DNA of 64,000 nucleotides from Candidatus Aminicenantes bacterium (GCA_963759765.1 CAVXAL010000003.1:939409-1003408), one strand, 5' to 3'. Shown: positions 6,019-55,576, numbered from the stretch's first letter. The notes: a model not told the origin generated them from the sequence alone. Numbers and translations: made by a program.

Positions 6019-6513
6019 ATGATTGCGCCCATGGAACAGGAGGTGCTCGACCTGCTGACCCGCCTGGCGATCGCCTTTGAGCGGCACGAGCACCCGCCGG
6101 TGTTCACCGTGGAAGAGGCCGAAATCCACTGGGCCGGCATCGACGCCGTTCACTGCAAGAATCTTTTTCTGCGCAACAAGAAGGGGAATCGCCACTACCT
6201 GGTAATCGCCCCCTGCAGCAGGCAGGTCGACCTGCGCCGCTTAAACCGGCTGCTCGAGGAGGACCGGCTCTCCTTCGCCTCGCCGGAGCGCATGGACAGG
6301 TACCTGGGCGTGACGCCCGGTTCGGTTTCGCCCTTCGGGCTCATTCATGACCGGCAGCGCGAGGTTCAGGTCATTCTGGACGCCGAGCTGCAACAGGCCG
6401 AGCGCGTCGGATTTCACCCCAACATCAACACGGCGACGCTGGTTATTTCTTTTGCCGATTTCGTGCGTTTTCTCAAGCACTGCGGCCAGAACCCGCGTGT
6501 GCTCCAGCTTTAG
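6019..6513 (+). CDS. ProX/PrdX-type aminoacyl-tRNA deacylase (YbaK superfamily)
   Basis: HPPVFTVEE, KNLFLRNKKG, LGVTPGSVSPFG, FHPNINTAT. Confidence 0.9.
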   Translation: MIAPMEQEVLDLLTRLAIAFERHEHPPVFTVEEAEIHWAGIDAVHCKNLFLRNKKGNRHYLVIAPCSRQVDLRRLNRLLEEDRLSFASPERMDRYLGVTPGSVSPFGLIHDRQREVQVILDAELQQAERVGFHPNINTATLVISFADFVRFLKHCGQNPRVLQL

Positions 6514-6643
6514 CCAGATCAGCGTTGATCATTGAGTTTGCTTTGCTCCCCGGGCAGTGTATAATGGCGCTTCTTTGATTCGTCTTTTCGTTCCATCAAC
6601 TTCGCAGGCCTGACGGTCAGGCGGCAAGGATTCGGGTGCAGAC

Positions 6644-7315
6644 ATGGCTAGGGAACAATTGAACGAGTGGCAACAGTTTCGGAGATCGTTCTCCGGACAA
6701 TTGAAAAACATCGTGGCCCTCCTGTGTATTCCGACCGGGCTCTTTTTCTGGTTTCGCGACCGCAACCTGGTTCTGGCCATCCCCATGGCCGTGCTGGCGC
6801 CGCTGGCCCTCAACGCTCCGGCATTCATTTATAAAAAAGTCTCTTGGCTGCACGAACGCTACAACCTGAAGCTGTTGCAGACCTACGAATACTGCCTGAT
6901 CCTCATGATCATCTTCAGCGTGTCCGGATCCGCCTATCTCTTCTACCTGCATTACCAGTTCGATATCCTCGTGCACTACACCGAAAACTTCATCATCGCC
7001 TTTCTCTTGGTCCTGGGATTAAACATCCGTCGCGAGCGCAAGAGTCAGCCGGATTTTTCGGCGAAAAAGGCGGCCTGGCTGATTTTTATCTTCGGTGTTT
7101 GTTTCGCCCTCGGTTGGGAACTTTATCAGGTCGCCTGCGACCATTTCTTCCATACCAAGATGGCCTTCGATTCGTTTCAATCCTGGCTCGACGATACCCT
7201 GTCAGACATGGCCGGCGGCGTGCTCGGCCTGCTGGTCTTCACCCCCTTGATCATCCTGCCGTTCTGGGATTACCTGAATTCACTCATCCGCAGGGGCCAG
7301 GGCATTTCCCGCTAG
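6644..7315 (+). CDS. Membrane protein, DUF2238/VanZ-like
   Basis: About 6 TM segments; FDILVH, WE, DTLSDM motifs. Confidence 0.6.
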   Translation: MAREQLNEWQQFRRSFSGQLKNIVALLCIPTGLFFWFRDRNLVLAIPMAVLAPLALNAPAFIYKKVSWLHERYNLKLLQTYEYCLILMIIFSVSGSAYLFYLHYQFDILVHYTENFIIAFLLVLGLNIRRERKSQPDFSAKKAAWLIFIFGVCFALGWELYQVACDHFFHTKMAFDSFQSWLDDTLSDMAGGVLGLLVFTPLIILPFWDYLNSLIRRGQGISR

Positions 7316-7329
7316 GATACGACGTCCAA

Positions 7330-7358
7330 TTTGAATTTATCCATGCTTGTGCTATAAT
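7330..7358 (+). promoter_or_regulatory. Extended -10 sigma70 promoter for the MgtE-like/NRAMP pair
   Basis: TGc-TATAAT at 7350-7358 with a TTGAA-like -35 upstream. Confidence 0.5.
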
Positions 7359-7440
7359 TCTCTTGAGGCTTTTGAGAGGCAAAGCCCGCTGCCTTTTAGC
7401 ATTGTTTTAATGCCGTGACGGTTGAAGATAAGAAGGCACC

Positions 7441-8705
7441 ATGAAATTCCAAGGTGAGGTCTTTTTAAGCGAGCTGGTCGGCAAGAAGGTCCTGGCGCCC
7501 GACGGCGAGCGGATCGGCAAAGTGCGCGATTTCGTCGTCACCCCGGGCGAGGTGCTGCCTTTTATCGATAGCTTTGTTATCAGAAGGGGGGGAAGCGCTT
7601 CAAACTGCGCTACGAGGACATCGAGCTGTTCAACCGCCTGTTCACGGTCTCCCGTCTCAACTGCGAACAGGTGGAGCCGCGCCCCATCGGAGGGCGGGAC
7701 ATCCTGGCCGTCAAGCACATCATGGACAGGCAGATCGTCGACATCAACGGCGCTAAGGTGGTGCGCGTCAACGACATCAAGGTGCGCGAAATCGACGGCA
7801 AGCTCTCGCTGATCGCCGTGGACGTCGGCATGCGCGGCATCCTGCGCCGCCTGGGCCTGAAGCGCAACGACTGGACCTTCTGGAAAAAACTGGTGCACAA
7901 TATCCCCTATGACCTGATATCCTGGAAATACCTCCAAGCCCTGGAGCCGGAGATTACCCACCTGTCGCTGACCGTGTCCAAAGAACTGGTCGACCTGCAC
8001 CCCTACGACATCGCCGAGATCCTGACCCAGATCCCGCCGGAAAACCAGGAGTCGCTGATCAACACCCTGGGTGTCGACACGGTGGCCTCCGCCATCCCGG
8101 AAATGGACGAAAAGCACCAGAAAGAATTGGTCGAACGGCTTGACGAGGAGAAGGCCGCGGACATCATCGAGGCCATGTCGCCCGACGACGCCGCCGACAT
8201 CCTGGGAGACCTGACCGATGCCAAGGCCGAGGCGATCATCCAGGAGATGGAGGATAGCGAGGCTCAGGAAGATGTCAAGGAGCTGCTGCAGCATCAGGAG
8301 GACACCGCCGGTGGCCTGATGACCACCGATTTCCTGGCGATCAAGCCCGACCTGACGGTGGCCGACACCCTGGCGTTGCTGCGCCAGTTGAGCCCGGAAA
8401 TCGAGAACATCTATCAAATCTATGTGGTGGATGAGCAGGAGCGCCTCCTGGGCTACCTGCCGATCAACGACCTTTTTTGCAAACGGCTGGAGGCCCGCAT
8501 CGGTGACATCATGAACGTGCGCGTCAAAAGCCTGACCAGCGACCGCGGCGACATGGAGGCGGCGGAAATCATGGCCAAGTACAACCTCCTGTCCCTGCCG
8601 GTGGTCGGGGAGGGCAACAAGCTCCTGGGTATCATCACCGTGGACGATACGCTGGAGGTGCTCATCCCGTCGCTCAAGAAGCGCAGCCGCTATAAGCAGA
8701 AATGA
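7441..8705 (+). CDS. Soluble PRC-barrel + MgtE N-terminal + CBS-pair protein, no TM domain (1 frameshift near 7590)
   Basis: ORFs 7441-7812 and 7671-8705 join at a G7 run; LHPYDIAEIL, MSPDDAADIL, TAGGLMTT, LLGIITVDD. Confidence 0.85.
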
Positions 8706-9976
8706 GCCGCGACCTGCCCGCCACGGCCGAGAAAAAACATTTTTGGCGCAACCTGTTGATTTTTCTGAGCGTGGTGGGCCCCGGCATCATCACCGGCAGC
8801 GTGGACAACGATGTCGGCGGCATCACCACCTATTCGGTGGCCGGCGCCCGGTATGGCTACCAGTTGCTGTGGACCCTGCTGCCGGCTTTCGTGGTCCTGA
8901 TGGTGGTGCAGGAGATGAACGCCCGCATGGGCATTGTCACGGGCAAGGGGTTGGCCGACCTGATCCGGGAAAACTTCGGCGTGCGTGTCACTTTTTTCAT
9001 CTTCATCGGTCTGGTGATAGCCGACATCGGCAACACGGCGACAGAATTTGCCGGCGTGGCCGGCAGCATGATGATCTTCGGCGTGAGCAAGTACATCGCC
9101 GTGCCGTTGGCGGCTCTGGCCGTTTGGTTTCTGGTGGTCAAGGGCACATACAAGCTGGCCGAACGGATTTTCCTCGTTTTCAGCTTTTTCCTGCTCTCCT
9201 ACGTTGTTTCGGCCGTGCTGGCCAAGCCCCACTGGAGCGAGATCGGCGTCGCCCTGGTCAAACCCACATTCCAGATGAACCGGGAATTCCTGGGCATGGT
9301 GATCGGCATGGTCGGAACCACGATCGCGCCCTGGATGCAGTTCTACATGCAGTCGGCGGTCATTGAGAAGCGCATCAAATGGAAGGATTATAAATTCGTC
9401 GTCTGGGATGTGATCATCGGCTGCACGGCCACGGTGGTGGTGGCGTTTTTCATCATCGTCGCCTGCGCCTCCACCCTGCACGAAAAGGGGATCGTCATCG
9501 CCGAGGCCAAGGACGCGGCCATGGCCCTGAAACCGCTGGCCGGCGCCATCGCGGCCCAGATTTTCGCCTTCGGCCTGTTCATCGCCGCCATCTTCTCGGC
9601 CACCATTCTTCCTCTGGCCACCGCTTTTTACGTGTGCGAGGCTTTCGGTTTTGAAGCCGGGATAGACAAAAAGCTCCATGAAGCTCCCAAATTTTACGCC
9701 TTGTTCACGGCCATCATCGCCCTGGGGGTGATCATCATCCTGATTCCCGGCGCCCCGCTGATCACCATCACCATCTGGACCCAGGTGGTCAACGGCATCC
9801 TGCTGCCGGTGGTGCTGATCTGCATGATGATCATGGTCAATCGCCGGGAAATCATGGGCGAGCACGTGAACAAGCCCTTCCAGAACGTGATCGGCTGGTC
9901 AACGAGTTTCCTGTTGATCGTCCTGACGTTTTTCTTGATTGTGGCGCCCTTCCTCTCCAAGCTGGTCAAGAAATAG
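8702..9976 (+). CDS. NRAMP-related divalent metal (probably Mg2+) transporter
   Basis: GPGIITGSVDNDVGG and GTTIAPW replace canonical DPGN/MPH motifs; ATGA overlap with upstream gene. Confidence 0.88.
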   Translation: MSRDLPATAEKKHFWRNLLIFLSVVGPGIITGSVDNDVGGITTYSVAGARYGYQLLWTLLPAFVVLMVVQEMNARMGIVTGKGLADLIRENFGVRVTFFIFIGLVIADIGNTATEFAGVAGSMMIFGVSKYIAVPLAALAVWFLVVKGTYKLAERIFLVFSFFLLSYVVSAVLAKPHWSEIGVALVKPTFQMNREFLGMVIGMVGTTIAPWMQFYMQSAVIEKRIKWKDYKFVVWDVIIGCTATVVVAFFIIVACASTLHEKGIVIAEAKDAAMALKPLAGAIAAQIFAFGLFIAAIFSATILPLATAFYVCEAFGFEAGIDKKLHEAPKFYALFTAIIALGVIIILIPGAPLITITIWTQVVNGILLPVVLICMMIMVNRREIMGEHVNKPFQNVIGWSTSFLLIVLTFFLIVAPFLSKLVKK

Positions 9977-14675: not shown

Positions 14676-16158
14676 TTATTGGGATTGACGCTTCTGCTTG
14701 CGCCGCCAGTAGAGGTAGCCGGGAATGCCGGCCGCGACCAGGGCCACGCCCATCAGCGAATTGATCAGCGGCGCGCGGCCGCTGATATAGTTGCTGATAT
14801 CCGAATAGAGGGTGAACACGATATAAACCGACGCGAAGGCGATGAAAATCCAGGGCACGACCGGGTAGCCCCAGACCTTGTAGGGGCGCGGGGCATTGGG
14901 CATGGTCTTGCGCAGCACGATCACGCCCAGCGTGCCCAGGGCGTAGAAGATCCAGGAGACGAAGATCAGCATGTCGGTCAGTTGGTCGAAGGTGCCGCTG
15001 AGCACGAGGATCGAGGCCCAGACGCCCTGGACAATCAGCGAGGGGCCGGGAGTGTGGAAGCGCGGGTGGATGTTTTTCAGGCGCTTGAAAAAGAGTCCCT
15101 CCCTGGCCATGGCGTAGTAGACGCGGGCCGACATCATGATCGTGCCGTTGGTGGTGCCGAAGGTGGAGATCATGATGGCGATGGCGATCAGCGCGCCGCC
15201 CCAGCCGCCCAGAAACGAGTTGGCCACGTCGGTGGCCACCAGGTAGGACTGGCCGCTGCTCTCTGCGGCCAGATACTTGGCGCCCATATCATGGACCGGG
15301 ATGATATAAATGTAAGCCAGGTTGACCAGGAGGTAAATGGAGATGAAGACTAGGGCGGCAATGGCCATGGCCCGCGGCAGGTTTTTCTGGGGATTCTTGA
15401 TTTCTCCGGCCAGGTAGGTGACGTTGATCCAGCCGTCGTAGGCCCAAAAGGCGCCAGCCATGGCCACGATAAAAGCCAGAAAAACCGAAGAGAAACCGCT
15501 GCCGGCGGCGATCGTTGACTGGGTGAAATTGCCCAGCTGCCCGTTGCCGAACAGTGAATGCCAGCAGCACGATGGCCAGGATGGCGGCGATCTTCAGGCC
15601 GGTGAACAGCACCTGCACGGCGCTGCCCAGGCGCACGCCCAGGTAATTGAGGGTGGTCAGAAAGAGCAGCAGGCCGATGGTGCAGAGCTTCAGGCCGATG
15701 AATTTGAAGGGGGTGATGGCGCCCAGCCAGGGGATGTGGATGGCGAAGTTTTCCCAGGCGGGTCCCAGCCGCGGGAACCTGAAAAAATAACCCAGGGAAT
15801 CGGAGAACACGTAGGCGATGGAGGCGATCGAGCCGGTCTGGATGACGATGAACACGGCCCAGCCGTAGAGGTAACCGACAAAATCGTTGTAGCACTTGTT
15901 GAAGTAGACGTACTGGCCGCCCGCCTCGTGGAACATGCCCGCTATTTCGGCGATGCTCAGGGCGCCGAACAGGGTCATGGCGCCGGCCACCACCCAGACC
16001 AGCATCAGCAGCATGGGCGAGCCGAGCTGCGAGGCCATCAGCCCCGGTTTCTTGAAGATGCCCGAGCCGATCACCGAGCCGATGGCGAAGGCCACGGCAG
16101 CCAGCAGGCCGATTTCCCTGAGCAGTTCCGCCGGTCTCTTTTCTTCCATGCGATTCAT
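14676..16158 (-). CDS. APC-family amino acid permease (1 frameshift near 15550)
   Basis: N-half GSVIGSGIF (ORF 15289-16158) and C-half FWAYDGW..EIKNPQKNLP (ORF 14676-15467); paralogous to 10050-11477. Confidence 0.88.
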
Positions 16159-17293: not shown

Positions 17294-17375
17294 GCGAAAG
17301 TGGTGGAATTGGCAGACACGTCAGATTTAGGTTCTGATACCGCAAGGTGTGGGGGTTCGAGTCCCCCCTTTCGCA
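17294..17375 (+). tRNA. tRNA-Leu (anticodon TAG), CCA not encoded
   Basis: Acceptor GCGAAAG/CTTTCGC, D-arm GGAATTGGCAGAC, anticodon arm TCAGA-TTTAGGT-TCTGA, long variable arm, T-arm GGGGG-TTCGAGT-CCCCC. Confidence 0.96.
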
Positions 17376-17412
17376 TGATAAATAAAATAATACAATTTTA
17401 GTTATATATCTA

Positions 17413-17441
17413 TTGAATTCCGCATTTTTTTATAATAAAAT
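17413..17441 (+). promoter_or_regulatory. sigma70-type promoter for the methyltransferase/kinase cassette
   Basis: TTGAAT-17bp-TAAAAT in AT-rich spacer. Confidence 0.5.
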
Positions 17442-17605
17442 AATTATATATGACCCGTTATGATTTTATCTTTAACGATTATTTGCGGGAGCGGACAGAG
17501 GGTAACCCAGCAGGAAAGAGGAGTGAAAAGGGAGTGACGATGAGCCTTTTTCCCATCTTAAACGCCCAGCAAACGGGAAACCGACAAAGGAGGTCCCGTT
17601 AGCCC

Positions 17606-19305
17606 ATGAGGAACTTTCAGGAAGATGTCCGCAAGGCCCGGCGCAAGACGCAGGACAATGCCTTCTGCCGCTTTGACACCGATCCGGCCGAGTTCACCGT
17701 CTACGAGCTTTCCGCGCACGGATTTTCCTTTCTCTGCCCCAAGGAGACCTGCTTTTTCAAGAAAGAGGCGATGCTCGAAAAGATTTCCATTTTTAACGCC
17801 GAGAAGCTGGAGATTATCCGCGCCTCAGGCCGGGTCATGCACGTGGCCGAGTTCGACTTCCAGAAGATGCGTGTGGGTGTCTTTTACACGAAAAAGACCC
17901 TGGACCGCACCATCTCCGGCAAGGTGCGCGTGCCGCGCAAAACGCCCAAGATCCCTTTGAATGCCATCATGAAGGTCAAGGTCAAGGGCGCCGAGCAGGA
18001 TATCCCGGCCAGGTCATGGATTTCACCGCTTCCACTGCGCGTATCGGATTCAACGGCAAAAGACCCGATGACCTTGAGATCGGCGATGAGATAACTGTAG
18101 CCATTCATGCTGAGGATAGTTTGCTTTATGACGGTTTGGGATATGTCTTGCGTAAGAGGGATGAGGGCGCAGAAATCATCATCCAATTTGCAAAATGGAT
18201 TGACTCTTCACGCGTAGAAACCGAAACCCAGGTGTATCAAAACCGACAAGTGATTTTCAGTGCATTGGATTCTATGCAGAAATACGATCTAGTCAAGGAG
18301 GAATATAAAGCGTTGATCAGTGACTGGCGTCTTTATCTGAGCCGGTTAAAGCAGGTTCTGGACAACGAGGAATTAAAAAACACCTATCGCAATGAATCGG
18401 ATAAAGAATTATTCTTAAAAAGCATAGAGGATAGACTTCTCAAAGTCCTACACGGTTATATTCACCAAATGAACCGAATGGTGGAATCCTTAAGCAAACA
18501 AGAAAGCACTATTTATAAAAAATATTACCGAGAAAACTTAAATCCCCTGCTTCGTTCATCCCCCTTGATTTCATCGATTATTGACAAGGACCTGGGCTAT
18601 GCAGGGGACTTCGAAACGATCAAGTTATTTTTTCAGAATCCCTATTCTGGAGACACGCTTTTCGGTAAATTTGTCAACAAGTATCTGTGCAGTTTGGATG
18701 CAGTTACTGCTCATGTGGACCGGATCCGTTACATTTCCGATCAATTGTGTTTTGCATACAAGAACTCTGCCAATGATTTTTCTTTTCTGGCTCTTGGTGC
18801 TGGACCGGCGGAAGAAGTGTTGCGTTTTGTTGAAAACAACTCTTTCGAGAAGCCAGTATTTGCAACCTTGATCGATATGGACGCTTACGCACTGGCTGAC
18901 TTTTCAGACCGCATGCAATATCTTCCCAAGAAGAATTTCACAGTTGATTTGCAGAACCTCAATGTAATTAACTTGATCCGTAATGAACCATCAATCGAGG
19001 ACCGGAAATACGACCTGAGTTATTGCGCTGGCATGTTCGATTATTTTTCTGACACATTCTGTAAAAGGCTAATCAAATACCTTATCAAATGTACAAAGCC
19101 CGACGGTGTAGCGATGTTTACCAACGTGAGCAAAGATAGCATGGCTCGCTACGTCATGGATTACTGCGGCGGTTGGGAGATCATCCACCGCAACAACGCG
19201 GAGATTGTAGCGTTGATTCCTCAGGAATATCACTACGAACTGTCCCACGATGAAAAAAAGGCCAATATTTATGCCAAGATCATCGTACCCAAACGAAACG
19301 GATGA
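17606..19305 (+). CDS. Tandem PilZ-like + class I SAM methyltransferase, PhcB-like signal synthase (1 frameshift near 18005)
   Basis: ORFs 17606-18094 and 18016-19305 join at atcccggccag; RKARR/ELSAHG PilZ-like motifs; DLGYAGDF, LALGAGPAEE, IDMD, YCAGMFDY. Confidence 0.75.
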
Positions 19306-21971
19306 TTAAGTTAGGGCGGCTCCTAAAAAAAATCAATTACCAGATCCCAGTAGAATTCGTCACGTCATACGAATCGAGCCTTCAGGAAATCCGACGTGCC
19401 AGGCTGATCCCAATTTTCTTTTTTAGCATCATACTGATTCCGGCAGCGGTCATTTTCGACAACTTGATTTTCCATACGCTCTGGCGTCGACTTTTCACTG
19501 TTCGCTTAATTTCCATGGCAATCTGCACAGGGCTTTATTTCTTGACCACCAAAATCCCCCTGAAAAACTATCCCCGAGCCATGTGCCAGGTGCTAAGCGT
19601 GGTTGTGGCCACCACCATTGCCTATTTGAGTTACTTAACAGGAGCATTTGAGAGTCCCTATTACGCTGGCCAGATTCTGCTATTCATCAGTATGGCCATG
19701 ATCATGCCATTGGGAATGGTCGGCTCTCTCTTTGCCGGATTTATGATATTGATCATTCATTATGGTATTAACCTGCTGCCGGCCTTGCTTGCCCATCAGG
19801 CAGTAGTTTGGCCATTGGTCTGGAACAGCATCTATTTTTTAACTTTTTCGTTTGGCATGGCCCTCATCGCTTCGCAGATGTTGGAACACAACCGCCGACA
19901 GATTTTTATCAAGACCGAAGAAGAAACTATCCGCAACAAGAAGCTGGAGGAATCGCGACGGCAGATTGACGCCCTCTCCAAGACCAAGAACCGCTTCATC
20001 TCCAACATCACCCACGAATTGAAGACACCGCTCTCAATTGTGATCGGCAACACCGACATCATCCTCGAACGGGCCGAACTCCTCGACGAGGCGATGACCA
20101 ACCAGCTGCAGATCGTCCAGCAGGCGGCCTTCCAGCTGGCCACCCATGTCGACCGCATCATCGCCGTCTCCACCGCCGACGACCCGGAGCTGAAGCTGCT
20201 GACCGAGAACTACGACTATGGCGGCGTGGTGCGCAACATTTTCAATCTCTTCGAGCCCAAGGCCAGCGACGAGGACATCACCTACACCCTCAACCTGCCC
20301 CTGCAGACGCTGGTGGCCAATATCGACGTGGTGCGCATCGAGGAAGTGCTCAACAACCTGATCCAGAACGCCTTCAAATTCTCCTCGGCCGGGGGGAATA
20401 TCAACGTCACCGTGTCCACGGACGGGCAGTGGATCTACACCGAAGTTTCGGATACCGGCGTGGGCATCCCCGAGAGCCGCCAGGGGGAGATCTTCGAGCG
20501 GCTATACCAAGCCGACGAGGTCCTTTCCAAGCGCCACGGCGGCATCGGCCTGGGGCTCTACCTCTGCAAGCGCAACGTCGAACTGCACGGCGGCGCGATC
20601 ACCGTCCATTCGAGCGCCGGCAAGGGCAGCTCCTTCAAGTATACCCTGCCGCTGCACATCAACCAGACCAGCGAGGTCAAGAACCGGCCCTATGTTGGGA
20701 CCGAACAGCGCTCCCAGGCCGAGCGCCGCACCGGCATGGACCGCCGCATGGCCGAGCGCCAGAGACGCTTCGAATACCAGCAGACCCTGGGCCTGGACGA
20801 CCTGGCCAAGATGACCTTTGTCGAAGATATCCACAACTACGAGAACATCAAGCCGGCCGAACCCACCGTGCTCATCGTCGAGGACAATCCGCGCATGATG
20901 AAGGTCATCGCCGAGGCGCTGTGCGACGATTACAACCTGATGCTGGCCCTCACCGGCCAGGAGGCGCTGGAGAAGCTGCAGAAATATCCCGGCCGCATCT
21001 CGCTCATCCTCTCTGACATCATGATGCCCGGCATGAGCGGCTTCGATTTCTGCAAGACGGTGATGGCCACGCCCGAGTGGAAGAACATCCCGCTGATCTT
21101 CGTCACCGCCTTGATGAAGGAGGATGACCAGCTGCGCGGCTTCGCCCTCGGCGCCACCGACTACATCGTCAAGCCCTACAACATCAAGATCCTGCGGGAA
21201 AAGGTGGGCCACTGGATTTCCCGGCGCCAGTACGAGTCGCTGCTCCAGGACATGTCCACCTCGCTGGAGACGCGGGTCAAGGAGATCTCGCGCATCAAGG
21301 ACATCATCCTGCACGAGATCCGCAATCCGCTGCAGCTGATCGGCGGAGCCGACTTCTATTTGCGGCGCATGGGCAACACCCTGTTCAAGGCCTCGGCCGA
21401 GGAGGAGCGCAAGTGGAAGAAGAGCCTGAAGATGCTCGGCCAGGGGATCGAGTCGATCAAGTCGGTGCTGGAGACCTCCCAGAGCCTGGAAGAGTTGGGG
21501 CTCTCCTCCAAGAAACCGGAGCCGGTCTCGACGCTTTTCGACGAGGCCCTCGCCCAGTGCCAGCACCTGCTCAAGGGCATCGACCTGCACAAGGATCTGC
21601 GGGTGATGGCCCACAAGACGGTCCTCTGCAACAAGAAGATGCTTTCCCAGGTGTTCGTCAACCTCATCCGCAATGCCGCCGAAGCCATCCGCGAGAAAGT
21701 TCCCGCTGAGGCGGGGGTGATCCGCATCGCCTCGATCAAGCAGGATGAGGAGACGCTGCTGCTGCGCGTCGAAGACAACGGCATCGGCATCGCGCCGGAG
21801 GCCAAGGAACAGCTGTTCCGTTTCCGCTTCACCACCAAGAAAGACGGCATGGGTGTGGGGCTGCACCTTTCCAAGATCGTCCTCAAGATGCATGAGGGCA
21901 ACATCGACGTCGAGTCGGAGCCGGGAAAAGGCACGGCCTTCATCATCACCCTGCCCGTGCAGAATACCTGA
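19302..21971 (+). CDS. Hybrid sensor kinase TM-HisKA-HATPase-REC-HisKA-HATPase (PhcS-PhcR-like fusion)
   Basis: About 5-6 TM; ITHELKTPL, NAFKF, DTGVG, GIGLGL; VEDN..SDIMMP..VKP; LHEIRNPL, NAAEA, DNGIG, GMGVGL; ATGA overlap with upstream gene. Confidence 0.92.
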   Translation: MIKLGRLLKKINYQIPVEFVTSYESSLQEIRRARLIPIFFFSIILIPAAVIFDNLIFHTLWRRLFTVRLISMAICTGLYFLTTKIPLKNYPRAMCQVLSVVVATTIAYLSYLTGAFESPYYAGQILLFISMAMIMPLGMVGSLFAGFMILIIHYGINLLPALLAHQAVVWPLVWNSIYFLTFSFGMALIASQMLEHNRRQIFIKTEEETIRNKKLEESRRQIDALSKTKNRFISNITHELKTPLSIVIGNTDIILERAELLDEAMTNQLQIVQQAAFQLATHVDRIIAVSTADDPELKLLTENYDYGGVVRNIFNLFEPKASDEDITYTLNLPLQTLVANIDVVRIEEVLNNLIQNAFKFSSAGGNINVTVSTDGQWIYTEVSDTGVGIPESRQGEIFERLYQADEVLSKRHGGIGLGLYLCKRNVELHGGAITVHSSAGKGSSFKYTLPLHINQTSEVKNRPYVGTEQRSQAERRTGMDRRMAERQRRFEYQQTLGLDDLAKMTFVEDIHNYENIKPAEPTVLIVEDNPRMMKVIAEALCDDYNLMLALTGQEALEKLQKYPGRISLILSDIMMPGMSGFDFCKTVMATPEWKNIPLIFVTALMKEDDQLRGFALGATDYIVKPYNIKILREKVGHWISRRQYESLLQDMSTSLETRVKEISRIKDIILHEIRNPLQLIGGADFYLRRMGNTLFKASAEEERKWKKSLKMLGQGIESIKSVLETSQSLEELGLSSKKPEPVSTLFDEALAQCQHLLKGIDLHKDLRVMAHKTVLCNKKMLSQVFVNLIRNAAEAIREKVPAEAGVIRIASIKQDEETLLLRVEDNGIGIAPEAKEQLFRFRFTTKKDGMGVGLHLSKIVLKMHEGNIDVESEPGKGTAFIITLPVQNT

Positions 21972-21982
21972 GCACCAGGGCC

Positions 21983-22447
21983 ATGGAACCCAGGCGCTGG
22001 TTGAAATCCGTTGCCATTCCGGCGCTGGGGGTTCTTCTTTTCTGGTCCTGCATGGTGCGGACCGCGCCGACACCGCCCGACCTGTTGCGCCAGAAGATCA
22101 GCAAACTGGCCCTGCATCTGGCCGGCATCCCTTACCGCAGCGGCGGCAACGATATCGAAGGCTTCGACTGCAGCGGGTTTGTCGCCTATGTCTACGACTG
22201 TTTCGGCGTGAAGCTGCCGCGCAGCGCCAAAGAACAGGCCAAGCTGAAATGCTTGGTGTCGCTGACCAAGGCCCGGCCGGCCGATATTCTGGCCTTCCGC
22301 ATTCAGCGCGGCTGGCACACGGCCATTTTCCTGGGCGAAAACCGCTTCGCCCATGCGCCAACGGAAAACAGCACTGTACGTTTGGAAACCCTCAACGGAT
22401 TCTGGCTGCACCGTCTGCGCAAGGTCATCGACGTGCTCGGCCACTGA
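21983..22447 (+). CDS. NlpC/P60 (C40) peptidase lipoprotein
   Basis: Lipobox-like FWSC; GIPYRSGG, GFDCSG, HTAIF..HA. Confidence 0.88.
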   Translation: MEPRRWLKSVAIPALGVLLFWSCMVRTAPTPPDLLRQKISKLALHLAGIPYRSGGNDIEGFDCSGFVAYVYDCFGVKLPRSAKEQAKLKCLVSLTKARPADILAFRIQRGWHTAIFLGENRFAHAPTENSTVRLETLNGFWLHRLRKVIDVLGH

Positions 22448-22450
22448 AAA

Positions 22451-23133
22451 ATGAAGGAGATCGTGCTGCACGTCGACGGAATCAGCAAAAGTTTTCTCCA
22501 ACCCGACCGCCAGCGGCTGGTCATCTTGCAGGGCCTATTTCTGCAGGTGGCCCGCGGCAGCATCGTGGCCATCAGCGGCGCCTCCGGCTCGGGCAAGAGC
22601 ACTCTGTTGCACCTGGTGGGTTCCTGGACCGGCCCGATACGGGCCGCATCCTGTTTGAGGGCCAGGATATCTTCCAGCTCAGCGGTAAAAAACTCTCCTT
22701 GTTTCGCAACCAGACGCTGGGCTTCGTCTTCCAGTTCCATTACCTTATGCCCGAGTTGAGCGTGCTGGAAAACGTGGCCGCGCCTTATCTGATGCGGCGC
22801 TTCCGCACGGCCGATGCCCTGGTTGCGGCCGCGGAACTGCTGGCTGCCGTGGGACTGGCCGAGAAGCACGCTTGCATGCCGCACCAGCTTTCCGGCGGAG
22901 AGAAGCAGCGGGCGGCCATCGCCCGCAGCCTGATCAACGGTCCGCGCCTGCTGCTGGCCGATGAGCCCACGGGCAACCTGGACTGGAAAACGGGCGAAGC
23001 GGTTTTCAACCTGTTCAAATCCCTGATCCGTGAGCGCGGGTTGACCGCGCTGATCGCCACCCACAACCCCCAGCTGGCTGCCCTCAGCGACGAGCGTTTC
23101 CTGCTGGCCAACGGCAGCCTGCAGCGGTTGTGA
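22451..23133 (+). CDS. lolD: Lipoprotein-releasing ABC transporter ATP-binding protein (frameshift near 22620)
   Basis: GASGSGKST, GFVFQFHYL, LSGGEKQR, LADEPTGNLD. Confidence 0.8.
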
Positions 23134-23188: not shown

Positions 23189-24465
23189 ATGCCCGAAGTG
23201 CTGGCGGTGATTCTGGGCGGCGGGCGGGGCGCGCGGCTCTTTCCCCTGACCAGATACCGGGCCAAACCCGCGGTGCCCATCGGCGGCAAGTTCCGCCTGA
23301 TCGACATCCCCATCTCCAACTGCCTGCACTGGGACATCAAGAAGATCATGGTGCTGACCCAGTTCAACACCGCTTCCCTGCACCGGCACATCACGCAAAC
23401 CTACCGCTTCGACAGCTTTTCCGAGGGTTTCCTGCAGATCCTGGCCGCCCAGCAGACCATCGGAGAACTCCGACTGGTACCAGGGCACGGCCGACGCCGT
23501 GCGCAAGAACATCCAGCTACATCAAGAACCAGCGGGTCGGATTATGTGGTCATTCTCTCCGGCGACCAGCTCTACCGCATCAACCTGCGTGAGTTCCTGC
23601 AGCGCCACCGGGAACGGAAAGCCGACATCTCCATCGCCGTCAAGCCGATCACGCGCGCCCGCACCCACGAATTCGGCATCATGCAGATCGACGACCAACA
23701 GCAGATCACCCGTTTCGTGGAGAAACCGGCCGGCAAGGACGCTGCTGGCCGAGCTGTTTACCCCGGATGAATACCTGGGTTTGAAAGACGAGGGGTTGAA
23801 CTATATCGCCTCCATGGGCATCTACATTTTCAACACCGACGTGCTGATCGAGGTGCTGGAAAACAACAGTCAAGGAGGACTTCGGACGCCAAATCATCCC
23901 GGACGCCATCGGCAGCCACCGGGTCTTCGCTTACGTGTTCAACGATTACTGGGAGGACATCGGCACGATCAGGGCCTTTTTCGAGGCCAACCTCGATTTC
24001 GCCAACCCCATGCCGCATTTCAATTTTTACGACGAGGAGGCGCCCATCTACACGCGCAAGCGCTTTCTGCCCGGTTCCAAGATCGAAAACTGCGACGTCC
24101 ACTATTCGCTGATTTCGGACGGTTCGATCATCGAAGGCGGCAAGCTGGCCAATACGGTCATCGGCATGCGTTCGGTCATCCGCGCCAACTCTTACCTGGA
24201 GCGGGTGGTGATGATGGGTGCCGATTTCTACGAGATGGAGGAAGAGATGCAGGAGAACGTCCGCCATGGCCGGCCTCCGGTCGGGGTGGGGTACAACGCC
24301 ATCATCAAGAACGCCATTCTGGATAAAAATGTTCGCCTGGGCGAAAACGTGCGCATCGTCAACGAGCAAGGATTGCAGGACTTTACGGCTGAGCGCTATC
24401 AGATCGTCGACGGGATCGTGGTCATCCCCAAGGACATGGAGATCCCCGACGGTTTTGTCATCTGA
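23189..24465 (+). CDS. glgC: Glucose-1-phosphate adenylyltransferase (several frameshifts)
   Basis: ILGGGRGARL, RAKPAVPIGG, WYQGTADAVR, ILSGDQLY, ASMGIY, YWEDIGT spread over three frames. Confidence 0.92.
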
Positions 24466-24510: not shown

Positions 24511-26665
24511 ATGTTAAGACGATTCGCCGTTTTCGTGCTGGTTTTCTTTTCGTTCCTGCTGATTGCCAAGGAGAGATTGACGCTGGACCAGGCGCTCTAT
24601 AACCGGGGCGAAGCGCTGACCCTGCCGCTGCCCTCCATTTCCGGCTGGGCCGACGACAGCCACTATATCCAGATCCGGGGCGGCCAGCTCTTTCGGGTCG
24701 AGGCGCGCAGCGGCCAAGCGACGCTGGTTCTCGACACGGCGCAATACCCGGCCCTGGGCCAGGCCGACCTCGATTTGCTGGCCGCCGAAGACTACACCCC
24801 GGACTGGAACCGCTTCGTTTTCCTCAAGGACGGCGATCTGCACCTGTTCCTGCGACCACTCAAGCGGTTGCAGAGGATCAGCGAGACCGCGGGCGAGGAG
24901 AAAAATCCGTGCTTCTCTCCGGACGGTACCCGGCTGGCCTACACCCTGAGCGGCAATCTCTATGTCTATGACATGGAGCAGCAGAAGAGCACGCCGCTGA
25001 CCGAGGACGGCAGCGAGGAGATTCTCAACGGCTACGCGTCCTGGGTCTATTACGAGGAAGTTCTGGGACGGTCCAGCCACTACCGGTCGTTCTGGTGGAG
25101 CCCCGACAGCCGTAAGATCGCTTTCCTGCGTTTCGACCAAACGGCGGTTCCCGTTTTTCCCATTTTCAATGCCGAAGGGATTTACGGCACGCTGGAGAAG
25201 CAGCGTTATCCAAAACCCGGCTTTCCCAATCCCCGGGTCAAGCTGGGCATCGTGGACCTGGCCAGCCGCAAGCTGGAGTGGATCGTGCCGAATGGAAAAG
25301 AAGACGATTACCTGACCTTTCCCGTCTGGAACCAGAGCCTCCGATCGCCTTTACTTCCAGTGGCTGAACCGCAACCAAAACCAGATGAAAATCCTGCGCT
25401 ACGACCTGGCCGGCCGGACGCTGCAAACGGTCTATGAAGAGCAGCAGGCATGCTGGATCGATTTTTTCGAGAACAACGATTTCCTGCTGCTGGCCGACGA
25501 GAGCTTGCTGCTGCGCAGCTCCAAGGACGGCTGGTTTCACATCTATCGCATTGCCAATGGCCGCCAGGAGCAGCTGACCTCCGGTCCCTGGTCGGTCAAG
25601 AGCGTCGAGGTTGCGGATCGCCAGAAGGACCTGATCCTGTTCAGCGCCGCCAAGGAAGATTCCACGGAAACCGATTTTTACCGCACCTCCTTCAAGGGCG
25701 GCACTCCCCGCCGGCTCAGCACCGAGCCGGGCACCCACAGCGTCACGGTGTCGCCGCGCGGTTCTTATTTCATCGACCGCCATTCGAATCTGCAAACCCC
25801 CGAGCGCCTGGAGTTGTTCGACCTGGGCGGTCGACTGACGCGCATTCTGGGCGAAAGCCGCTCCGCGGCTCTGGATAAATACGGTCTGGCAAAAGTCGAG
25901 CTGTTCCGCATCCCCACCGAGGACGGGTACAAACTGCCCGCGCTCTGGTATCTGCCCGCTGAACTCGACCGCAGCAAGAAGTACCCGGTGATCATGTTCG
26001 AATACGGCGGTCCCGGTTCGCAGGATGTAGCGAACCGTTTTGCCGGGGATATCCGGAAGCATTTCCTGGCCCAGGAGGGGATCATTTCCCTGGCTGTCGA
26101 CCACCGCGGTTCCAGCCATTTCGGCAAGCAGGGAATGGAGCGGATGTACCGCAACCTGGGCAAGTGGGAGATGAACGACTACATCCAGGCGGTCAAGTAC
26201 CTGCGCACGCTCCCCTTTGTCGACCCGGAGCGCATCGGCATCACGGGCGGCAGCTACGGCGGCTACGTGACGGCCCTGGCCTTGACCTGCGCCTCGGACT
26301 ATTTCAAATACGGCATCGCCGAATCGTCGGTCATCGACTGGGCGCTCTACGATTCTGTTTACACCGAGCGCTACATGGGCCTGCCAGCGGAGAACCCCGA
26401 GGGCTACCAGAGCAGTTCCGTGCTGAACTACATCGACAAGTACCGGGGCGGGCTGCGCATCACCCACGGCTCCCTGGACGACAACGTGCACATGCAGAAC
26501 ACCATCCAGTTCATCAGCCGGGTGCTCGACGCCGGCAAGACGGTGGAACTGATGATCTATCCGGGCGATCGCCACGGCTTACGCGGCGCCCACCGGCAGG
26601 AGGACCAGAAGTCCAATCTCAATTTCTGGTTCCGCAGTTTTTACGGCAAGAAGATCGCCGAGTAA
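24511..26665 (+). CDS. Dipeptidyl peptidase IV-like S9B peptidase, exported (frameshift near 25340)
   Basis: WVYYEE, YPKPG, GGSYGG, DDNVH, RHG; signal peptide. Confidence 0.92.
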
Positions 26666-43750: not shown

Positions 43751-45547
43751 ATGAAAAGATTCGCTTTGTTTATTTTAATGACACTCTTCTTGGGCTTGGG
43801 GCTGTTTGCCGATCCATTGATCATTTACGGCCACATCACCATGACCGATCCGGAAGTGAAGATATCCCGGCCCGATGGCCAGGAAGTTCGCAATGCCATG
43901 CTCAACATGCCGATCCTGCTTGGAGACAACATTATCACGCCGGCCAGCGGCCGCTGCGAGATCCAGTTCGACAACGGCACCATTTTCCGGCTTGACAAGA
44001 ACAGCGAATTGAAAATCGGCACCGTTCTTTCCAAGAGCATGACCAGCAATTGGAAGGTGACCACGCTGAACCTGCTCAAGGGCCAGCTCTATGGCATCAT
44101 CAATACCTACAACCGCGAGATGTTCCAGGTGACCACGCCCAATGCTGCGGTCAAGATGGACGCGGGTTCCAAGAACGTGGTGGCTTACAGCGAGACGGCG
44201 GGCAGCAGGATCGATGTGATTTCGGGCAAGGTTTACGCTCTGTACGGAGCCAAAGAAGATGCGTTGAAAGAGGAGAAGATCGGTCGGGATAAGAGCGTGC
44301 GTATTGGCCCGGACAGCAAGTTGCTCAATGACTCGACAAAGGACGCCGATTTCATTTTTTGGAACGAGGGCATCAACCGCAATTTCGACGAGGCGCATCC
44401 CTCCAGCGTTCTGCCCAAGCCGATTTACCGTTACCCGGCCAGCGTGATTTACTGGGCGGAGAAGTGGTCCAGCCGTTACGGCGAATGGGTCTGGGATTCC
44501 ATTTTGGGTTATATCTGGCGGCCCTATGCGGATACCTTCATAACCAACCGGCCCTTCTTCAACGCCAATTACGTGACCATCGGCGGCAAGCTGTTCATGG
44601 TTCCTCAGGAAGCCTGGGGCTGGGCGCCCGCTTACCTGGGTACGTGGCACTGGACGGCCAAGAGCGGCTGGGTCTGGATCCCCGGTGATGCGTTCGGCTT
44701 GTCTGGCGATAATTTCGGTGAATACGGAATGATCGATGCTGAAAGCTGGATGGATTATTCGTTCAGATACTGGGGTTTCAACAACCTCTACGAGTGGCTG
44801 GTACTGTATTATGACTGGTATTATGGATATCACACATTCAATTTTAATCGCAACGCAGCGATTCCAGGTCCTCCCCACGGGGGCCCTGCTGAAAGTAAAC
44901 TCATGGGAGAAATTCCCATCAAAGGGTACGGCGGGAGTGGTTTTACTGCTGGTATTAAACTGAAAGAGCTGCCCGAGCCTGTCCGTTCGATTATAAAGCA
45001 ACTGGATCGCCTGTCACCTGAAAAGCGCGCCGAACTGATGCCCCAACCGCCGAACAAATTTTTCAGCGGCCCCATGATCAAGGGTGGCGAGGCGTTGACG
45101 CCGCCCAAGCCGCTCCGCCAGGAAACCATCCGCTCCGGCGAGCAGGCCCAGCGCCAACCCTATTATCCCAGCATGCGGCCGGATACCAAGCCCATCGCCG
45201 GTATCCCTGCCAGGCCTGTGGTTGGGACCCCGCATGTCGGTTTCCGCAACTGGAACCCGGATGTGCGCGTCGCCCGGCAACTGGGCATTGACTTCCGTTA
45301 CCTTTCCGGACGCAACGAGTTCGCTTTCCCGAGGCTGGGAGTAACGTCGAGCACAATCTCTTCGTTTCAGCGCCAGACATTGAATGCCAGCGTCCACGGT
45401 TTCAATAATGGGGGCGGCGGATTCGCCGGAGGTTTTTTTAGGAGGGATGATTCGTCAGGCAGCCAGTCCTCTGCGACGAGCAGCGGCACTCACCGCAGCT
45501 CGAGTTCAAGCAGCAGCAGCGGAGGCAGCGAAAAAATTAAGAATTAG
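43751..45547 (+). CDS. Exported FecR-domain + DUF6600-like protein
   Basis: Signal peptide; GRCEIQFDNGT..RLD (FecR-like); YGEWVW..WRP, WGWAP..GTW..GWVWIPG; Ser/Gly tail. Confidence 0.75.
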   Translation: MKRFALFILMTLFLGLGLFADPLIIYGHITMTDPEVKISRPDGQEVRNAMLNMPILLGDNIITPASGRCEIQFDNGTIFRLDKNSELKIGTVLSKSMTSNWKVTTLNLLKGQLYGIINTYNREMFQVTTPNAAVKMDAGSKNVVAYSETAGSRIDVISGKVYALYGAKEDALKEEKIGRDKSVRIGPDSKLLNDSTKDADFIFWNEGINRNFDEAHPSSVLPKPIYRYPASVIYWAEKWSSRYGEWVWDSILGYIWRPYADTFITNRPFFNANYVTIGGKLFMVPQEAWGWAPAYLGTWHWTAKSGWVWIPGDAFGLSGDNFGEYGMIDAESWMDYSFRYWGFNNLYEWLVLYYDWYYGYHTFNFNRNAAIPGPPHGGPAESKLMGEIPIKGYGGSGFTAGIKLKELPEPVRSIIKQLDRLSPEKRAELMPQPPNKFFSGPMIKGGEALTPPKPLRQETIRSGEQAQRQPYYPSMRPDTKPIAGIPARPVVGTPHVGFRNWNPDVRVARQLGIDFRYLSGRNEFAFPRLGVTSSTISSFQRQTLNASVHGFNNGGGGFAGGFFRRDDSSGSQSSATSSGTHRSSSSSSSSGGSEKIKN

Positions 45548-45609
45548 AAGCAAATAAATTTTGATTTTTTTAATTAATTATTAATCTCATCTATTGCCTC
45601 ACCTCCTCT

Positions 45610-46546
45610 CTAAAATAATCTTATTCTTATGCCTATTTTTAATGAAACTCCGCTGTAATCCAAAATTGCTTTTCTTATATCGTTTATAAAATAAATGCTT
45701 GCATCTGGTATTTTTTCCCAAATTTGTAAATCTGCAACTCGACCACCAAAATGTAGATCCTCCCTTGTGTAATAATAAAGAATCCCTTTTTCTTCATCAT
45801 GATCACCATAATCAGTGTCCGTTTTCCTAATTCCTTTTAAACCTCTTATTTTTACAAGCCTTCCTTGAAATTCCATTACCAAGGCCACGTTTTTAATAAT
45901 GGTGTATTCCAGAAGAGCCGAACCTTGAAATCCAATCGAGAATTTTTTCTCGGCATCCATAGATATCGAGCTCCATCCTGTGCCTCCCAATGGAAATGTA
46001 ATATCGGTTTTTGAAAAGCGTGAAATTTTACCTGAATAAAAGCCAATACCTCCCCCGAATAAAATGTTTATTTTTGAAATCAAAGGAATTGTGTAATACA
46101 CATTCAATCTTATGGGCATGGCAACTTTTATATCTGGGTTAAAAGTATATACAAGTATCTGCGGCCCCGCACCCCCTGTCATTGTATAAGTGAGAGAGGC
46201 TCTCGTTGCTTCTATGAAAAGGGCCTGATGTGGAAATCCCCAGACTGATTTTGGGGGAAATATCCATTCTGAATTCCGCTTCCCAATTGCTGGTCCTGCC
46301 ATTGAGCTTTGTTATCTCTCCTTCCACAAGGTTTGGATTATTCTTTCTCAAAAATTCAAATGTAGCGTTATTATTAAAAGATTCTAAGCATTTATTGACA
46401 TCTCCAATTGTTATGGAATCTACTCCACCCGTTACCTTTATGCTGAATTTCGGTTTGAAACTTTTTTTTTCTTCCGCTTGGGCAATACTGGATAACGATA
46501 TGAAAAAGAAAAATAGAATAAGACAACTCACCTTCCTGTGTTGCAT
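45610..46546 (-). CDS. Outer-membrane beta-barrel protein, very AT-rich (frameshift near 46200)
   Basis: ORFs 46139-46558 + 45610-46302; signal peptide; C-terminal DYSGVSLKIGIRIRLF; paralog of 29667-30554. Confidence 0.78.
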
Positions 46547-46710
46547 AAACTTGCCCACCTCTTTTAATTACCTTTCCAAAATCTCCGATTATTATGTAAT
46601 ATTAAATTAATACTCTGTCAACTTTTTTATGTATCAATTTTCATTTTTTCATCACTTTTACGGATTTTTTTATCTTACGATTAAATAATGATATTCCGAA
46701 TTATATTCGT

Positions 46711-47304
46711 TTAAATGAAAGCGCGGTATGCGCGAACGATATCCTGGAAAACAGAATCTAATTCGCCGTTGCCGTCAATGAGACGGATGTTGACGCCTGA
46801 AAGCTTCAGGAAATTTTCGCGGACTTTCTTGAGGAATGCTTCCTTTTCAAACAGCTTGGCTTTTGTCTGGCGGCTCTGGCGGATGCGTTTCAGAGCAGTT
46901 TTCACTTCCACGTCTATGACGAAAACGATGTCGGCTTCGGGCGCGAAAGCCCGGTTGGCCGCCAGGATCTCTTCCATGTCCAGGCCGCGCGCGCCCTGGT
47001 AACAGGCATTGGAATAAAAATAGCGGTCGAGCACTACGATCTTGCCTGCCTGCAGAGCGGGGCGGATGTTTTGCTCCACGTCCCAGCGCCGGTCCGCGAT
47101 AAACAACTCCAGTTCCTGTAGCGGCGGCAAATGGGAGCGGGTACGGGCCAGGCTGCGGATGCGCTCGCCGGTCGGCCCGTCTGAGGGTTCGCGCAGCCAG
47201 ACGTTGGCCTGGCCGTTGTCGCTCAGGGAGCCGCAGAAGAGGCGCGACAGGCAGGTCTTGCCCGAGCCGTCAATGCCTTCGAAAACGATGAGCCGCGGCA
47301 ACAT
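46711..47304 (-). CDS. tmk: Thymidylate kinase
   Basis: FEGIDGSGKT, REP, LDRY..S..YQG. Confidence 0.95.
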   Translation of the reverse strand: MLPRLIVFEGIDGSGKTCLSRLFCGSLSDNGQANVWLREPSDGPTGERIRSLARTRSHLPPLQELELFIADRRWDVEQNIRPALQAGKIVVLDRYFYSNACYQGARGLDMEEILAANRAFAPEADIVFVIDVEVKTALKRIRQSRQTKAKLFEKEAFLKKVRENFLKLSGVNIRLIDGNGELDSVFQDIVRAYRAFI

Positions 47305-55522: not shown

Positions 55523-55576
55523 TGCGCCGGCTGAAGATAGATTTAATTGATCGGCAAGGAAGCGGGGAGGAAGCCC

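Follow-up and report, generated by a model that had tools for sequence, protein, structure and literature searches.

We describe a two-gene cassette at positions 17606-21971, on the plus strand, of a 64,000-nucleotide (nt) stretch of Aminicenantes-like DNA (hereafter the window, which always means the whole stretch). The two genes are translationally coupled. With moderate confidence we read them as encoding a synthase of the PhcB type, gated by cyclic di-GMP (c-di-GMP), and a membrane kinase of the PhcS-PhcR type, which together would make and sense their own lipid-like signal. In Ralstonia, PhcB is reported to be a synthase of methyl 3-hydroxymyristate or methyl 3-hydroxypalmitate, in sources that include PMC11960443.

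The cassette contains three open reading frames (ORFs), all on the plus strand: 17606-18094 (ORF1, frame 2, 162 aa), 18016-19305 (ORF2, frame 1, 429 aa) and 19302-21971 (889 aa). The homologs have about 567 aa, and ORF1 and ORF2 correspond to their two halves. Since the N-termini of these relatives match the 162-aa ORF, the two ORFs are one gene, the reading frames of which meet in a C/G run at 18004-18010. The end of this gene overlaps the start of the kinase gene by 4 nt, as the original prediction had described: the ATGA at 19302-19305 is common to the methyltransferase stop and the kinase start.

The break in the first gene was analyzed with Logan contigs from four public runs, which were compared with positions 17400-20400. 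X1 and X2 are peat runs from one study, X3 is a freshwater-sediment run from another study, and the fourth run is X4. In the three runs that cover the position (X1, X2 and X3), one contig each carried an extra C behind 18003 together with T18001G, and a single frame was restored. Run X4 had no cover at 18003, and several bins were without cover in one run or another; one run may be the window's own source, which leaves no more than one independent study. Four more genes within about 10 kb are each broken into consecutive pieces of one Pfam profile (Table 1), and the completeness score of the 4-contig assembly is 73.7%. The assembly seems to bear many single-base indels. Because the frame is intact in the short reads, the neighboring genes are split and the completeness is low, the break near 18005 is read as an assembly indel error. 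The first gene is intact in environmental DNA. The frameshift noted in the original prediction is present in the window; it is, however, an error or variant of this assembly and not a biological feature.

By sequence comparison, the enzyme is a distant, full-length member of the PhcB family. When one genome was scanned for each GTDB species, at least 589 loci encoding relatives were found, and the best 80 of them (L001-L080) were kept; these include Cupriavidus, Paraburkholderia and Hydrogenophaga. The Cupriavidus pauculus locus (L069) has a row of four genes encoding a methyltransferase, a transmembrane (TM) HisKA-HATPase kinase, a protein with receiver (REC), HisKA and HATPase domains, and a REC protein, which is the phcBSRQ layout. 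Cupriavidus necator JMP134 is described in PMC2842291 as having a complete phcA and phcBSRQ set, 56-75% identical to that of R. solanacearum. The Cupriavidus PhcB-like protein was used as a proxy for Ralstonia PhcB in our comparisons. The window enzyme is 25% identical to the C. pauculus protein over 427 aa (E 4e-45), residues 21-424 of the former being aligned with residues 48-462 of the latter. The enzyme has 76 database relatives, 62 of which are in a close group (36-62% identity, mostly 560-580 aa), and 16 of the 76 carry the JGI product name PhcB. The PhcB-type assignment of the original prediction was thus upheld when the comparison was made with Cupriavidus as the proxy, and both halves of the kinase align with the corresponding Phc proteins as well (see below).

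The GYAGDF, GAGPAEE and YCAGMFDY motifs on which attention had been drawn are all present (Table 1). Across 37 close and distant relatives, GYxGD, GxGPxxE, the acidic end of strand 2 and YxAGxFDY vary hardly or not at all, and all of them are found in the window. G194, Y195 and G197 of GYAGDF are invariant in these 37 proteins, as are G263, E267, D287, D289, Y336, A338 and G339 of the methyltransferase core. For the 429-aa ORF, Pfam gives weak generic Methyltransf_25/23 matches, and NCBIfam gives weak CheR and BioC matches. As the window gene is broken, the AlphaFold model of a full-length relative (P0002, 62% identical) was used as a stand-in. The model, with a mean predicted local distance difference test (pLDDT) score of 87.2, consists of two barrels (residues 23-102 and 122-198), a helical bundle (205-391) and a Rossmann methyltransferase domain (396-565). 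A Foldseek search with this model gave small-molecule methyltransferases first, and the two-barrel c-di-GMP receptor MrkH at rank 31. In a locus of Verrucomicrobiales (L025:8273-11248), the enzyme has an open frame of 991 aa with an N-terminus about 500 aa longer than in its relatives; this may be explained by another fusion or by an ORF extended too far.

The second gene encodes a kinase of 889 aa with the domain order TM, histidine kinase (HK), REC and HK. The order, stated in the original prediction, is borne out by the Pfam domains: HisKA at residues 229-293 (6e-12), HATPase_c at 342-452, Response_reg at 523-635 and a second GHKL ATPase, HATPase_c_5, at 781-874. H238, D572 and H671 have the usual H-box and receiver surroundings, and the ATP-lid motifs (N and G boxes) of both kinase cores are intact. 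The N-terminus, a hydrophobic stretch of about 215 aa, can be aligned with multi-pass sensors. The Cupriavidus PhcS-like protein matches residues 106-450 (25% identity, E 6e-19), and the Cupriavidus PhcR-like protein matches residues 521-885 (24% identity, E 4e-20). The best NCBIfam match is LvrA (NF047465) at residues 191-885; its score of 282.4 bits is far below the cut-off of 1200, so the kinase is not a member of that family.

The membrane sensor was compared at the level of profiles with hhalign, using a profile of the window clade built from five sequences. This profile matched the membrane domains of nine Burkholderiales PhcS-like proteins (94.9%, E 4.6e-8, 181 columns) and the sensors of 22 fused kinases beside PhcB-like genes (99.8%, E 1.2e-29). 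The motifs LDY..YP and SPYYAG are common to the compared sensors and visible by eye. We therefore take the sensor to be homologous to the PhcS sensor, as judged from the profiles. Pfam MASE8 (PF20968) matches 11 of the 22 related sensors weakly (best 1.2e-5); the window kinase has no MASE8 match at E <= 0.1. A test of orthology by reciprocal best match in Cupriavidus was dropped, because generic catalytic cores dominate it. The proposed kinship with PhcS and PhcR accordingly draws on sensor-profile similarity, architecture and synteny. The C. pauculus genome has a second kinase (G041:C12:469390-470424, a 708-aa open frame) that is similar to the window kinase from residue 106, into the membrane part. 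Against the window kinase it scores better than PhcS (E 1.5e-21 vs 5.4e-14), and it may be a PhcS paralog.

The pairing of the enzyme with a TM kinase is conserved across phyla, as the survey of gene neighborhoods suggested in the original prediction has shown. The criterion was a TM kinase directly downstream of the enzyme within 700 bp, and each of the two samples consisted of the best 80 of more than 490 tblastn matches by similarity and was not a random draw. A TM kinase lies directly 3' of the PhcB-like gene in 65 of 70 GTDB loci (L011-L080) and in 62 of 80 metagenome loci. In 48/70 GTDB and 34/80 metagenome loci the kinase is fused, with TM-HK-REC-HK in a single ORF, and it is split into TM-HK followed by REC-HK in 9/70 and 9/80. 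The nine split GTDB loci comprise eight from Burkholderiales and L068, which is apparently frameshifted. TM-HK only was found in 4/70 and 5/80 loci, and a kinase cut by the contig end in 4/70 and 14/80. A further 3/70 and 15/80 were too short to judge. No TM kinase lies within 700 bp in 2/70 GTDB and 3/80 metagenome loci; in one of these three metagenome loci, L087, a kinase lies upstream in divergent orientation.

A quick maximum-likelihood tree of 83 enzyme sequences (LG+G4, SH-aLRT support only, unrooted, with long-branch warnings) placed ten Burkholderiales rows (support 100) within a clade whose next neighbors have fused kinases. These neighbors are Porticoccaceae, Planctomycetota and Lentisphaerota/Pedosphaera. 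The 13-row clade of the window is split from the other 70 rows by the longest inner branch of the tree. If the root lies outside the Burkholderiales neighborhood, the separate PhcS and PhcR would more likely have arisen by fission, as far as an unrooted tree can indicate. The idea that PhcS and PhcR are fused in the window holds in that the kinase is one 889-aa chain. Most loci have the fused kinase, and fission in Burkholderiales is more likely than the reverse as the origin of the separate PhcS and PhcR.

Within the window's own clade, two arrangements were seen. In type A, a full-length fused kinase lies directly 3' of the enzyme; this applies to the window and to L001, L006, L085, L086 and L088. 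L085 and L086 come from the window's own family, and their kinases are both about 53% identical to that of the window over the whole length. In the loci of the window, L001, L006, L085 and L086, the only common genes are those for the enzyme and the kinase. The cassette is therefore a self-contained unit of two genes, as had been predicted. In type B, a different kinase adjoins the enzyme. The gene directly 5' of the enzyme in L004 (Desulfobacterales; 6275-9544, plus strand) encodes 7TMR-DISM-HisKA-HATPase-REC-HD-GYP, and a divergent gene in L009 (Spirochaetia; 6986-9508, minus strand) encodes a MASE8-like sensor followed by HisKA-HATPase-REC-HD-GYP, both according to Pfam. The sensor of L009 is homologous to that of the window (98%, E 2e-13), and its MASE8 score is 24.8 bits against a cut-off of 26.2. 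L003, L005, L007, L008 and L010 were assigned to type B from the same tblastn pattern, the Pfam scan covering L004 and L009. L002 has no kinase on its 6.4-kb contig. A metagenome scan for closer relatives gave L087 and L088 as the clade members among the matches listed.

The N-terminal part of the enzyme carries the motifs of a PilZ domain. The RxxxR motif of PilZ (PF07238) was found at the expected spacing of about 20-30 residues before the second motif: RKARR (nt 17630, residues 9-13, just 5' of the barrel) precedes ELSAHG (nt 17705) by 21 residues. R12, R16, S39 and G42 are invariant in 51/51 full-length members of the clade, despite overall identities of 36-63%. The residue that opens the [D/N]xSxxG motif is E in 33 of the 51 members, including the window, and D in the other 18. 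Pfam PilZ matches 16 of the 51 homologs (best 6.9e-12). The second barrel has an invariant RxxR and D[YF][TN]xxxxR of its own, by column counts over the 51 members, and is non-canonical. The alignment of the PhcB-like proteins of about 475 aa starts inside this second barrel, and at a comparable N-terminal position these proteins have no [DNE]xSxxG, three from Polyangiaceae excepted. Because these relatives start in the second barrel and mostly lack the motif, the first barrel is regarded as a clade-specific addition. The three Polyangiaceae proteins (L046, L047 and L075) are distant PhcB-like proteins with DLSL[TH]G near the N-terminus; they may have retained or regained a motif of the c-di-GMP type.

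Two further facts bear on c-di-GMP. The window's own genome has six GGDEF matches, and it therefore probably makes c-di-GMP. In the sister loci an HD-GYP phosphodiesterase is encoded beside the PilZ-fused enzyme, which provides independent support for a link to c-di-GMP. The PilZ N-terminus is a putative c-di-GMP-binding part. In the literature on PhcB that was searched, neither relatives outside Burkholderiales nor a PilZ fusion were found, and the supplementary tables of PilZ and HD-GYP surveys may list a PilZ-methyltransferase architecture. The main text of one PilZ survey mentions a methyltransferase only in the case of MapZ-CheR (bioRxiv 10.1101/814665).

In 7 of 12 loci of relatives (L168, L169, L171, L172, L174, L177 and L178), a tRNA-Leu(TAG) lies about 10-180 nt 5' of an nlpC/P60 gene. 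In the window the two are 4.6 kb apart, and the gap (17376-21982) is filled exactly by the cassette. Since the tRNA and nlpC/P60 genes are neighbors in these relatives, the cassette was inserted 3' of the tRNA. An att-like direct repeat of the tRNA end was not found, and the 4.6 kb contain no integrase. The enzyme was strongly found in 2 of 24 other genomes of the family and in none of 16 sampled genomes of other families in the class. As for the host, LysS of the window (55547-57049) is 68-71% identical to proteins of Candidatus Aminicenantes, which account for four of the eight organism-labelled matches among the 120 listed; the remaining labelled matches have single differing labels. LysS thus points to Candidatus Aminicenantes, in agreement with the non-proteobacterial lineage that had been supposed. 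The runs holding the locus are peat and freshwater-sediment metagenomes.

The cassette is a mosaic in composition. The GC content at third codon positions (GC3) is 0.78 in the PilZ part, about 0.46 in the enzyme body (0.44-0.50, with 0.68 at the 3' end), 0.56-0.62 in the membrane sensor and 0.88-0.94 in the remainder of the kinase; in the neighboring genes it is 0.71-0.81. The low tract at about 18090-19950 is among the lowest 3% or so of the genome's 1.8-kb windows, and the genome has 38 low-GC islands (1.8-kb windows, GC <= 0.45). A second low-GC island lies inside the window at about 44893-47293. Single short-read contigs bridge both borders of the tract at 99% identity or more (X1 record 3, 17900-18587; X3 record 17, 17641-18147; X1 record 6, 19591-20191). 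The low-GC3 tract is therefore not an assembly chimera. No donor of the tract was identified, since the identity of each segment ranks the relatives alike, without incongruence. The window genome has no close resident paralog able to convert the high-GC3 part, the best being 35% identical.

A similar pattern, in the same direction and milder, was found at L006:9590-13991 (locus GC 0.60), where GC3 is 0.42-0.64 in the enzyme and sensor and 0.62-0.82 in the cytoplasmic kinase. Homologous loci of lower GC do not show the pattern. In view of L006 and the lower-GC loci, a family-wide cause is conceivable. The introduction of PMC11960443 states that, in the phylogenies of PhcB and PhcS, Ralstonia strains fall into groups by signal type and not by phylotype. 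The tract covers the two parts that would be expected to set signal specificity, and a swapped specificity segment is an attractive but unproven explanation by analogy.

The sequences establish the homology of both proteins and of the sensor to the Phc proteins, the architecture, the intact catalytic and motif residues, the conserved gene pair, the insertion and, from reads, the intact frame. We propose the following mode of action, which is inferred as regards the product and whether it diffuses, the binding of c-di-GMP, the direction in which phosphate passes and the final output. The enzyme would O-methylate the carboxyl group of an acyl-type metabolite to give a hydrophobic methyl ester that could leave the cell, and c-di-GMP bound to the PilZ domain would gate its activity. 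The ester would be sensed in the membrane by the sensor of the second gene. H238 would then autophosphorylate, and the phosphate would pass to D572. Phosphorylation of D572 would switch the second kinase (H671), which in turn would act on an unlinked response regulator.

Several observations weigh against this proposal. Among the five type-A loci compared, no regulator is linked to the cassette; the original prediction had already noted the lack of a PhcA-like LysR or other adjoining output regulator, and no LysR gene lies next to it. A PhcQ-like query from Cupriavidus gave receiver matches only (query 5-152) in the window genome, with no match to the C-terminal domain, in an assembly that is incomplete as stated above. 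The identity to PhcB is just 25%, and the substrate may therefore differ. When the two kinase halves are compared with the Cupriavidus genome, generic kinase cores score above PhcS and PhcR, neither of which is the top match. Used as a single query, the sensor finds PhcS just at E 0.485 in Cupriavidus, and it leaves the partner kinase locus unmatched in Oceaniferula (off-locus E 0.24) and in a Polyangiaceae genome, where nothing was found. ORF1 of the window has no Pfam PilZ match at E <= 0.1, and it has E where the canonical second motif has D or N. The non-random sampling of the linkage survey should also be borne in mind.

Some of these points can be read in other ways. It is conceivable, though unlikely, that there is no cell-to-cell signal at all: the substrate of the enzyme would be a lipid of the membrane, some other metabolite or, as with CheR, a protein; the kinase would monitor the envelope or be the target itself, and the circuit would serve the cell alone. 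By sequence, CheR is the one solved structure that matches, and marginally so (5ftw_A, E 0.0019); NCBIfam gives weak CheR and BioC matches, and a PilZ protein, MapZ, is reported to act on the methyltransferase CheR (bioRxiv 10.1101/814665). The homology to PhcB over the full length (E 4e-45) is, however, far stronger than that to CheR. The top fold matches are small-molecule methyltransferases, the reported products of Ralstonia PhcB are methyl esters of 3-hydroxy fatty acids, and the partner sensor is homologous to that of PhcS, which is described as sensing the ester in PMC11960443.

A quite improbable reading is that the PilZ-type barrels no longer bind c-di-GMP and act as a scaffold or as an interface for other proteins, a role presumably played by the single N-terminal barrel of Burkholderiales PhcB. 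The missing Pfam match, the E in the second motif of the window and of most other members, the non-canonical second barrel and the absence of [DNE]xSxxG near the N-terminus of most PhcB-like proteins of about 475 aa would all fit. It would not be expected from the invariance of both Arg, the Ser and the Gly in all 51 members at such low overall identity, nor from the 16 members that pass Pfam PilZ; HD-GYP-containing kinases adjoin the enzyme in the sister subclade, and the genome has GGDEF genes. That the cassette is dead or a chimeric artefact, with a methyltransferase pseudogene and a mosaic made by mis-assembly of two organisms, is very hard to believe. The frameshift, the sharp GC3 jumps inside both genes and the error-prone assembly might raise the suspicion. 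The frame is nevertheless intact in three runs from two studies (at most one of them independent), single short-read contigs cross both composition borders, and all catalytic and motif residues are intact. We therefore retain the gated PhcB-type synthase with its PhcS-PhcR-type kinase as the preferred reading.

The features of the cassette and its surroundings are collected in Table 1. The promoter-like site upstream of the cassette is a mere hint, because the consensus scan of the region gave 7 sites against 3.9 expected. A search for RNA 5' of and inside the cassette found the tRNA only, with no riboswitch or other RNA.

Table 1. Positions of the cassette, its predicted domains and the surrounding features in the window.
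Feature	Position	Strand	Basis or remark
Split amino-acid permease	14676-16158	-	Consecutive profile pieces
tRNA-Leu (anticodon TAG), left cassette border	17294..17375	+	ARAGORN; Rfam tRNA 56.5 bits
Promoter-like site (weak), in AT-rich spacer 5' of cassette	17413..17441	+	Consensus scan, 9/12 matches
PilZ - second barrel - helical bundle - PhcB-family S-adenosylmethionine (SAM) methyltransferase, one gene	17606..19305	+	Homologs of ~567 aa span both ORFs
First beta-barrel, PilZ	17663..17902	+	Limits transferred from AlphaFold (AF2) model of P0002
Second, non-canonical barrel; contains assembly frameshift 18004-18010	17960..18189	+	AF2 model of stand-in P0002, strands 122-198
Low-GC3 tract (GC 0.435)	18090..19950	.	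Enzyme body + kinase membrane sensor
Helical bundle bearing family motif GYAGDF (nt 18595)	18208..18768	+	Model helices 205-391
Class I (Rossmann) SAM methyltransferase core: GAGPAEE 18796, IDMD 18871, YCAGMFDY 19021	18778..19287	+	
PhcS-type multi-pass membrane sensor; FDNLIF aa 52, ESPYYAG aa 117	19302..19946	+	hhalign
First histidine kinase core, HisKA + HATPase_c, H238	19986..20657	+	Pfam; H, N, G1, G2 boxes
Receiver domain, D572, SDIMMPG at aa 571	20868..21206	+	Pfam Response_reg 3.9e-21
Second histidine kinase core, PhcR-like, H671, second GHKL ATPase	21267..21956	+	HATPase_c_5; HEIRNP aa 671
nlpC/P60 gene, right insertion border	21983..22447	+	Pfam NLPC_P60 8.6e-20
Split ABC ATPase	22451-23133	+	Consecutive profile pieces
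Split GlgC	23189-24465	+	Consecutive profile pieces
Split DPP-IV-like peptidase	24511-26665	+	Consecutive profile pieces

The cassette resembles the phcBSRQ systems of the Ralstonia solanacearum complex and Cupriavidus in the enzyme family, over its full length, and in the type of membrane sensor. The order of enzyme, sensor kinase and receiver-kinase is also shared, with the synthase beside its sensor, as these systems are described in PMC2842291 and PMC11960443. It differs from them in that the identity is only 24-25%, PhcS and PhcR form a single chain, no PhcQ-like protein was found in the incomplete window genome, no regulator is linked and the host is Aminicenantes-like, not a member of Burkholderiales. 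At its N-terminus the window enzyme has an additional PilZ barrel, with motifs of the c-di-GMP type, that is lacking in Cupriavidus PhcB. PilZ is coupled to a SAM methyltransferase in MapZ-CheR1 of Pseudomonas aeruginosa as well (bioRxiv 10.1101/814665), and by that likeness c-di-GMP could set methylation. MapZ and CheR1 are, however, separate proteins with a chemoreceptor as the substrate, whereas the PilZ domain of the window is fused in cis to a PhcB-type enzyme, the CheR similarity of which is marginal.

Two consecutive beta-barrels, one of them with RxxxR and SxxG, appear in the model as in MrkH and in the xPilZ-PilZ (YcgR-like) and PilZ-PilZ proteins. In YcgR and MrkH the canonical PilZ domain is the C-terminal barrel, as far as the sources used describe it; in the window the canonical-looking barrel is N-terminal, the second is degenerate and the pair is fused to an enzyme. 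The match to the LvrA-type hybrid kinase takes in the same stretch of the chain, with both kinase cores and the receiver between them. The window kinase is set apart by its score below the family cut-off and by the membrane sensor, which lies outside the match.

The agr and comQXP loci of peptide quorum sensing show a polymorphism of specificity groups (pherotypes), in which the synthase and the receptor sensor vary together. The segment of odd composition in the window likewise covers exactly the synthase body and the receptor sensor; this is an analogy only. Unlike in agr and comQXP, no second allele of the cassette was seen at the same site, and no donor was identified. It is only tentatively possible that the cassette belongs to a large, so far unpublished class of systems with lipid-type autoinducers, whose synthesis an intracellular second messenger directly gates, with an HD-GYP phosphodiesterase as the receptor output that feeds back on the PilZ domain of the synthase in one branch, and with the synthase body and sensor exchanged together between lineages as a specificity unit.

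New in the present analysis are the two-barrel subclade, the read-level proof of the frame, the empty-site evidence for insertion, the sister arrangement with HD-GYP and the composition mosaic. Published work treats Phc signalling as peculiar to Ralstonia and its near kin. The same pair of enzyme and sensor is found in many phyla, with at least 589 loci in one genome per GTDB species, and the kinase is usually fused. The role of PhcR in Ralstonia is still described as debated in PMC11960443. A single-chain ancestor, if true, would imply that transfer from PhcS to PhcR is the original wiring. The finding also bears on the substrate range of PhcB-type enzymes, and on whether c-di-GMP, the messenger of biofilm formation and motility, can have direct control over the output of a cell-to-cell signal. 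The compact unit of two genes would make such a link between c-di-GMP and the signal easy to test.

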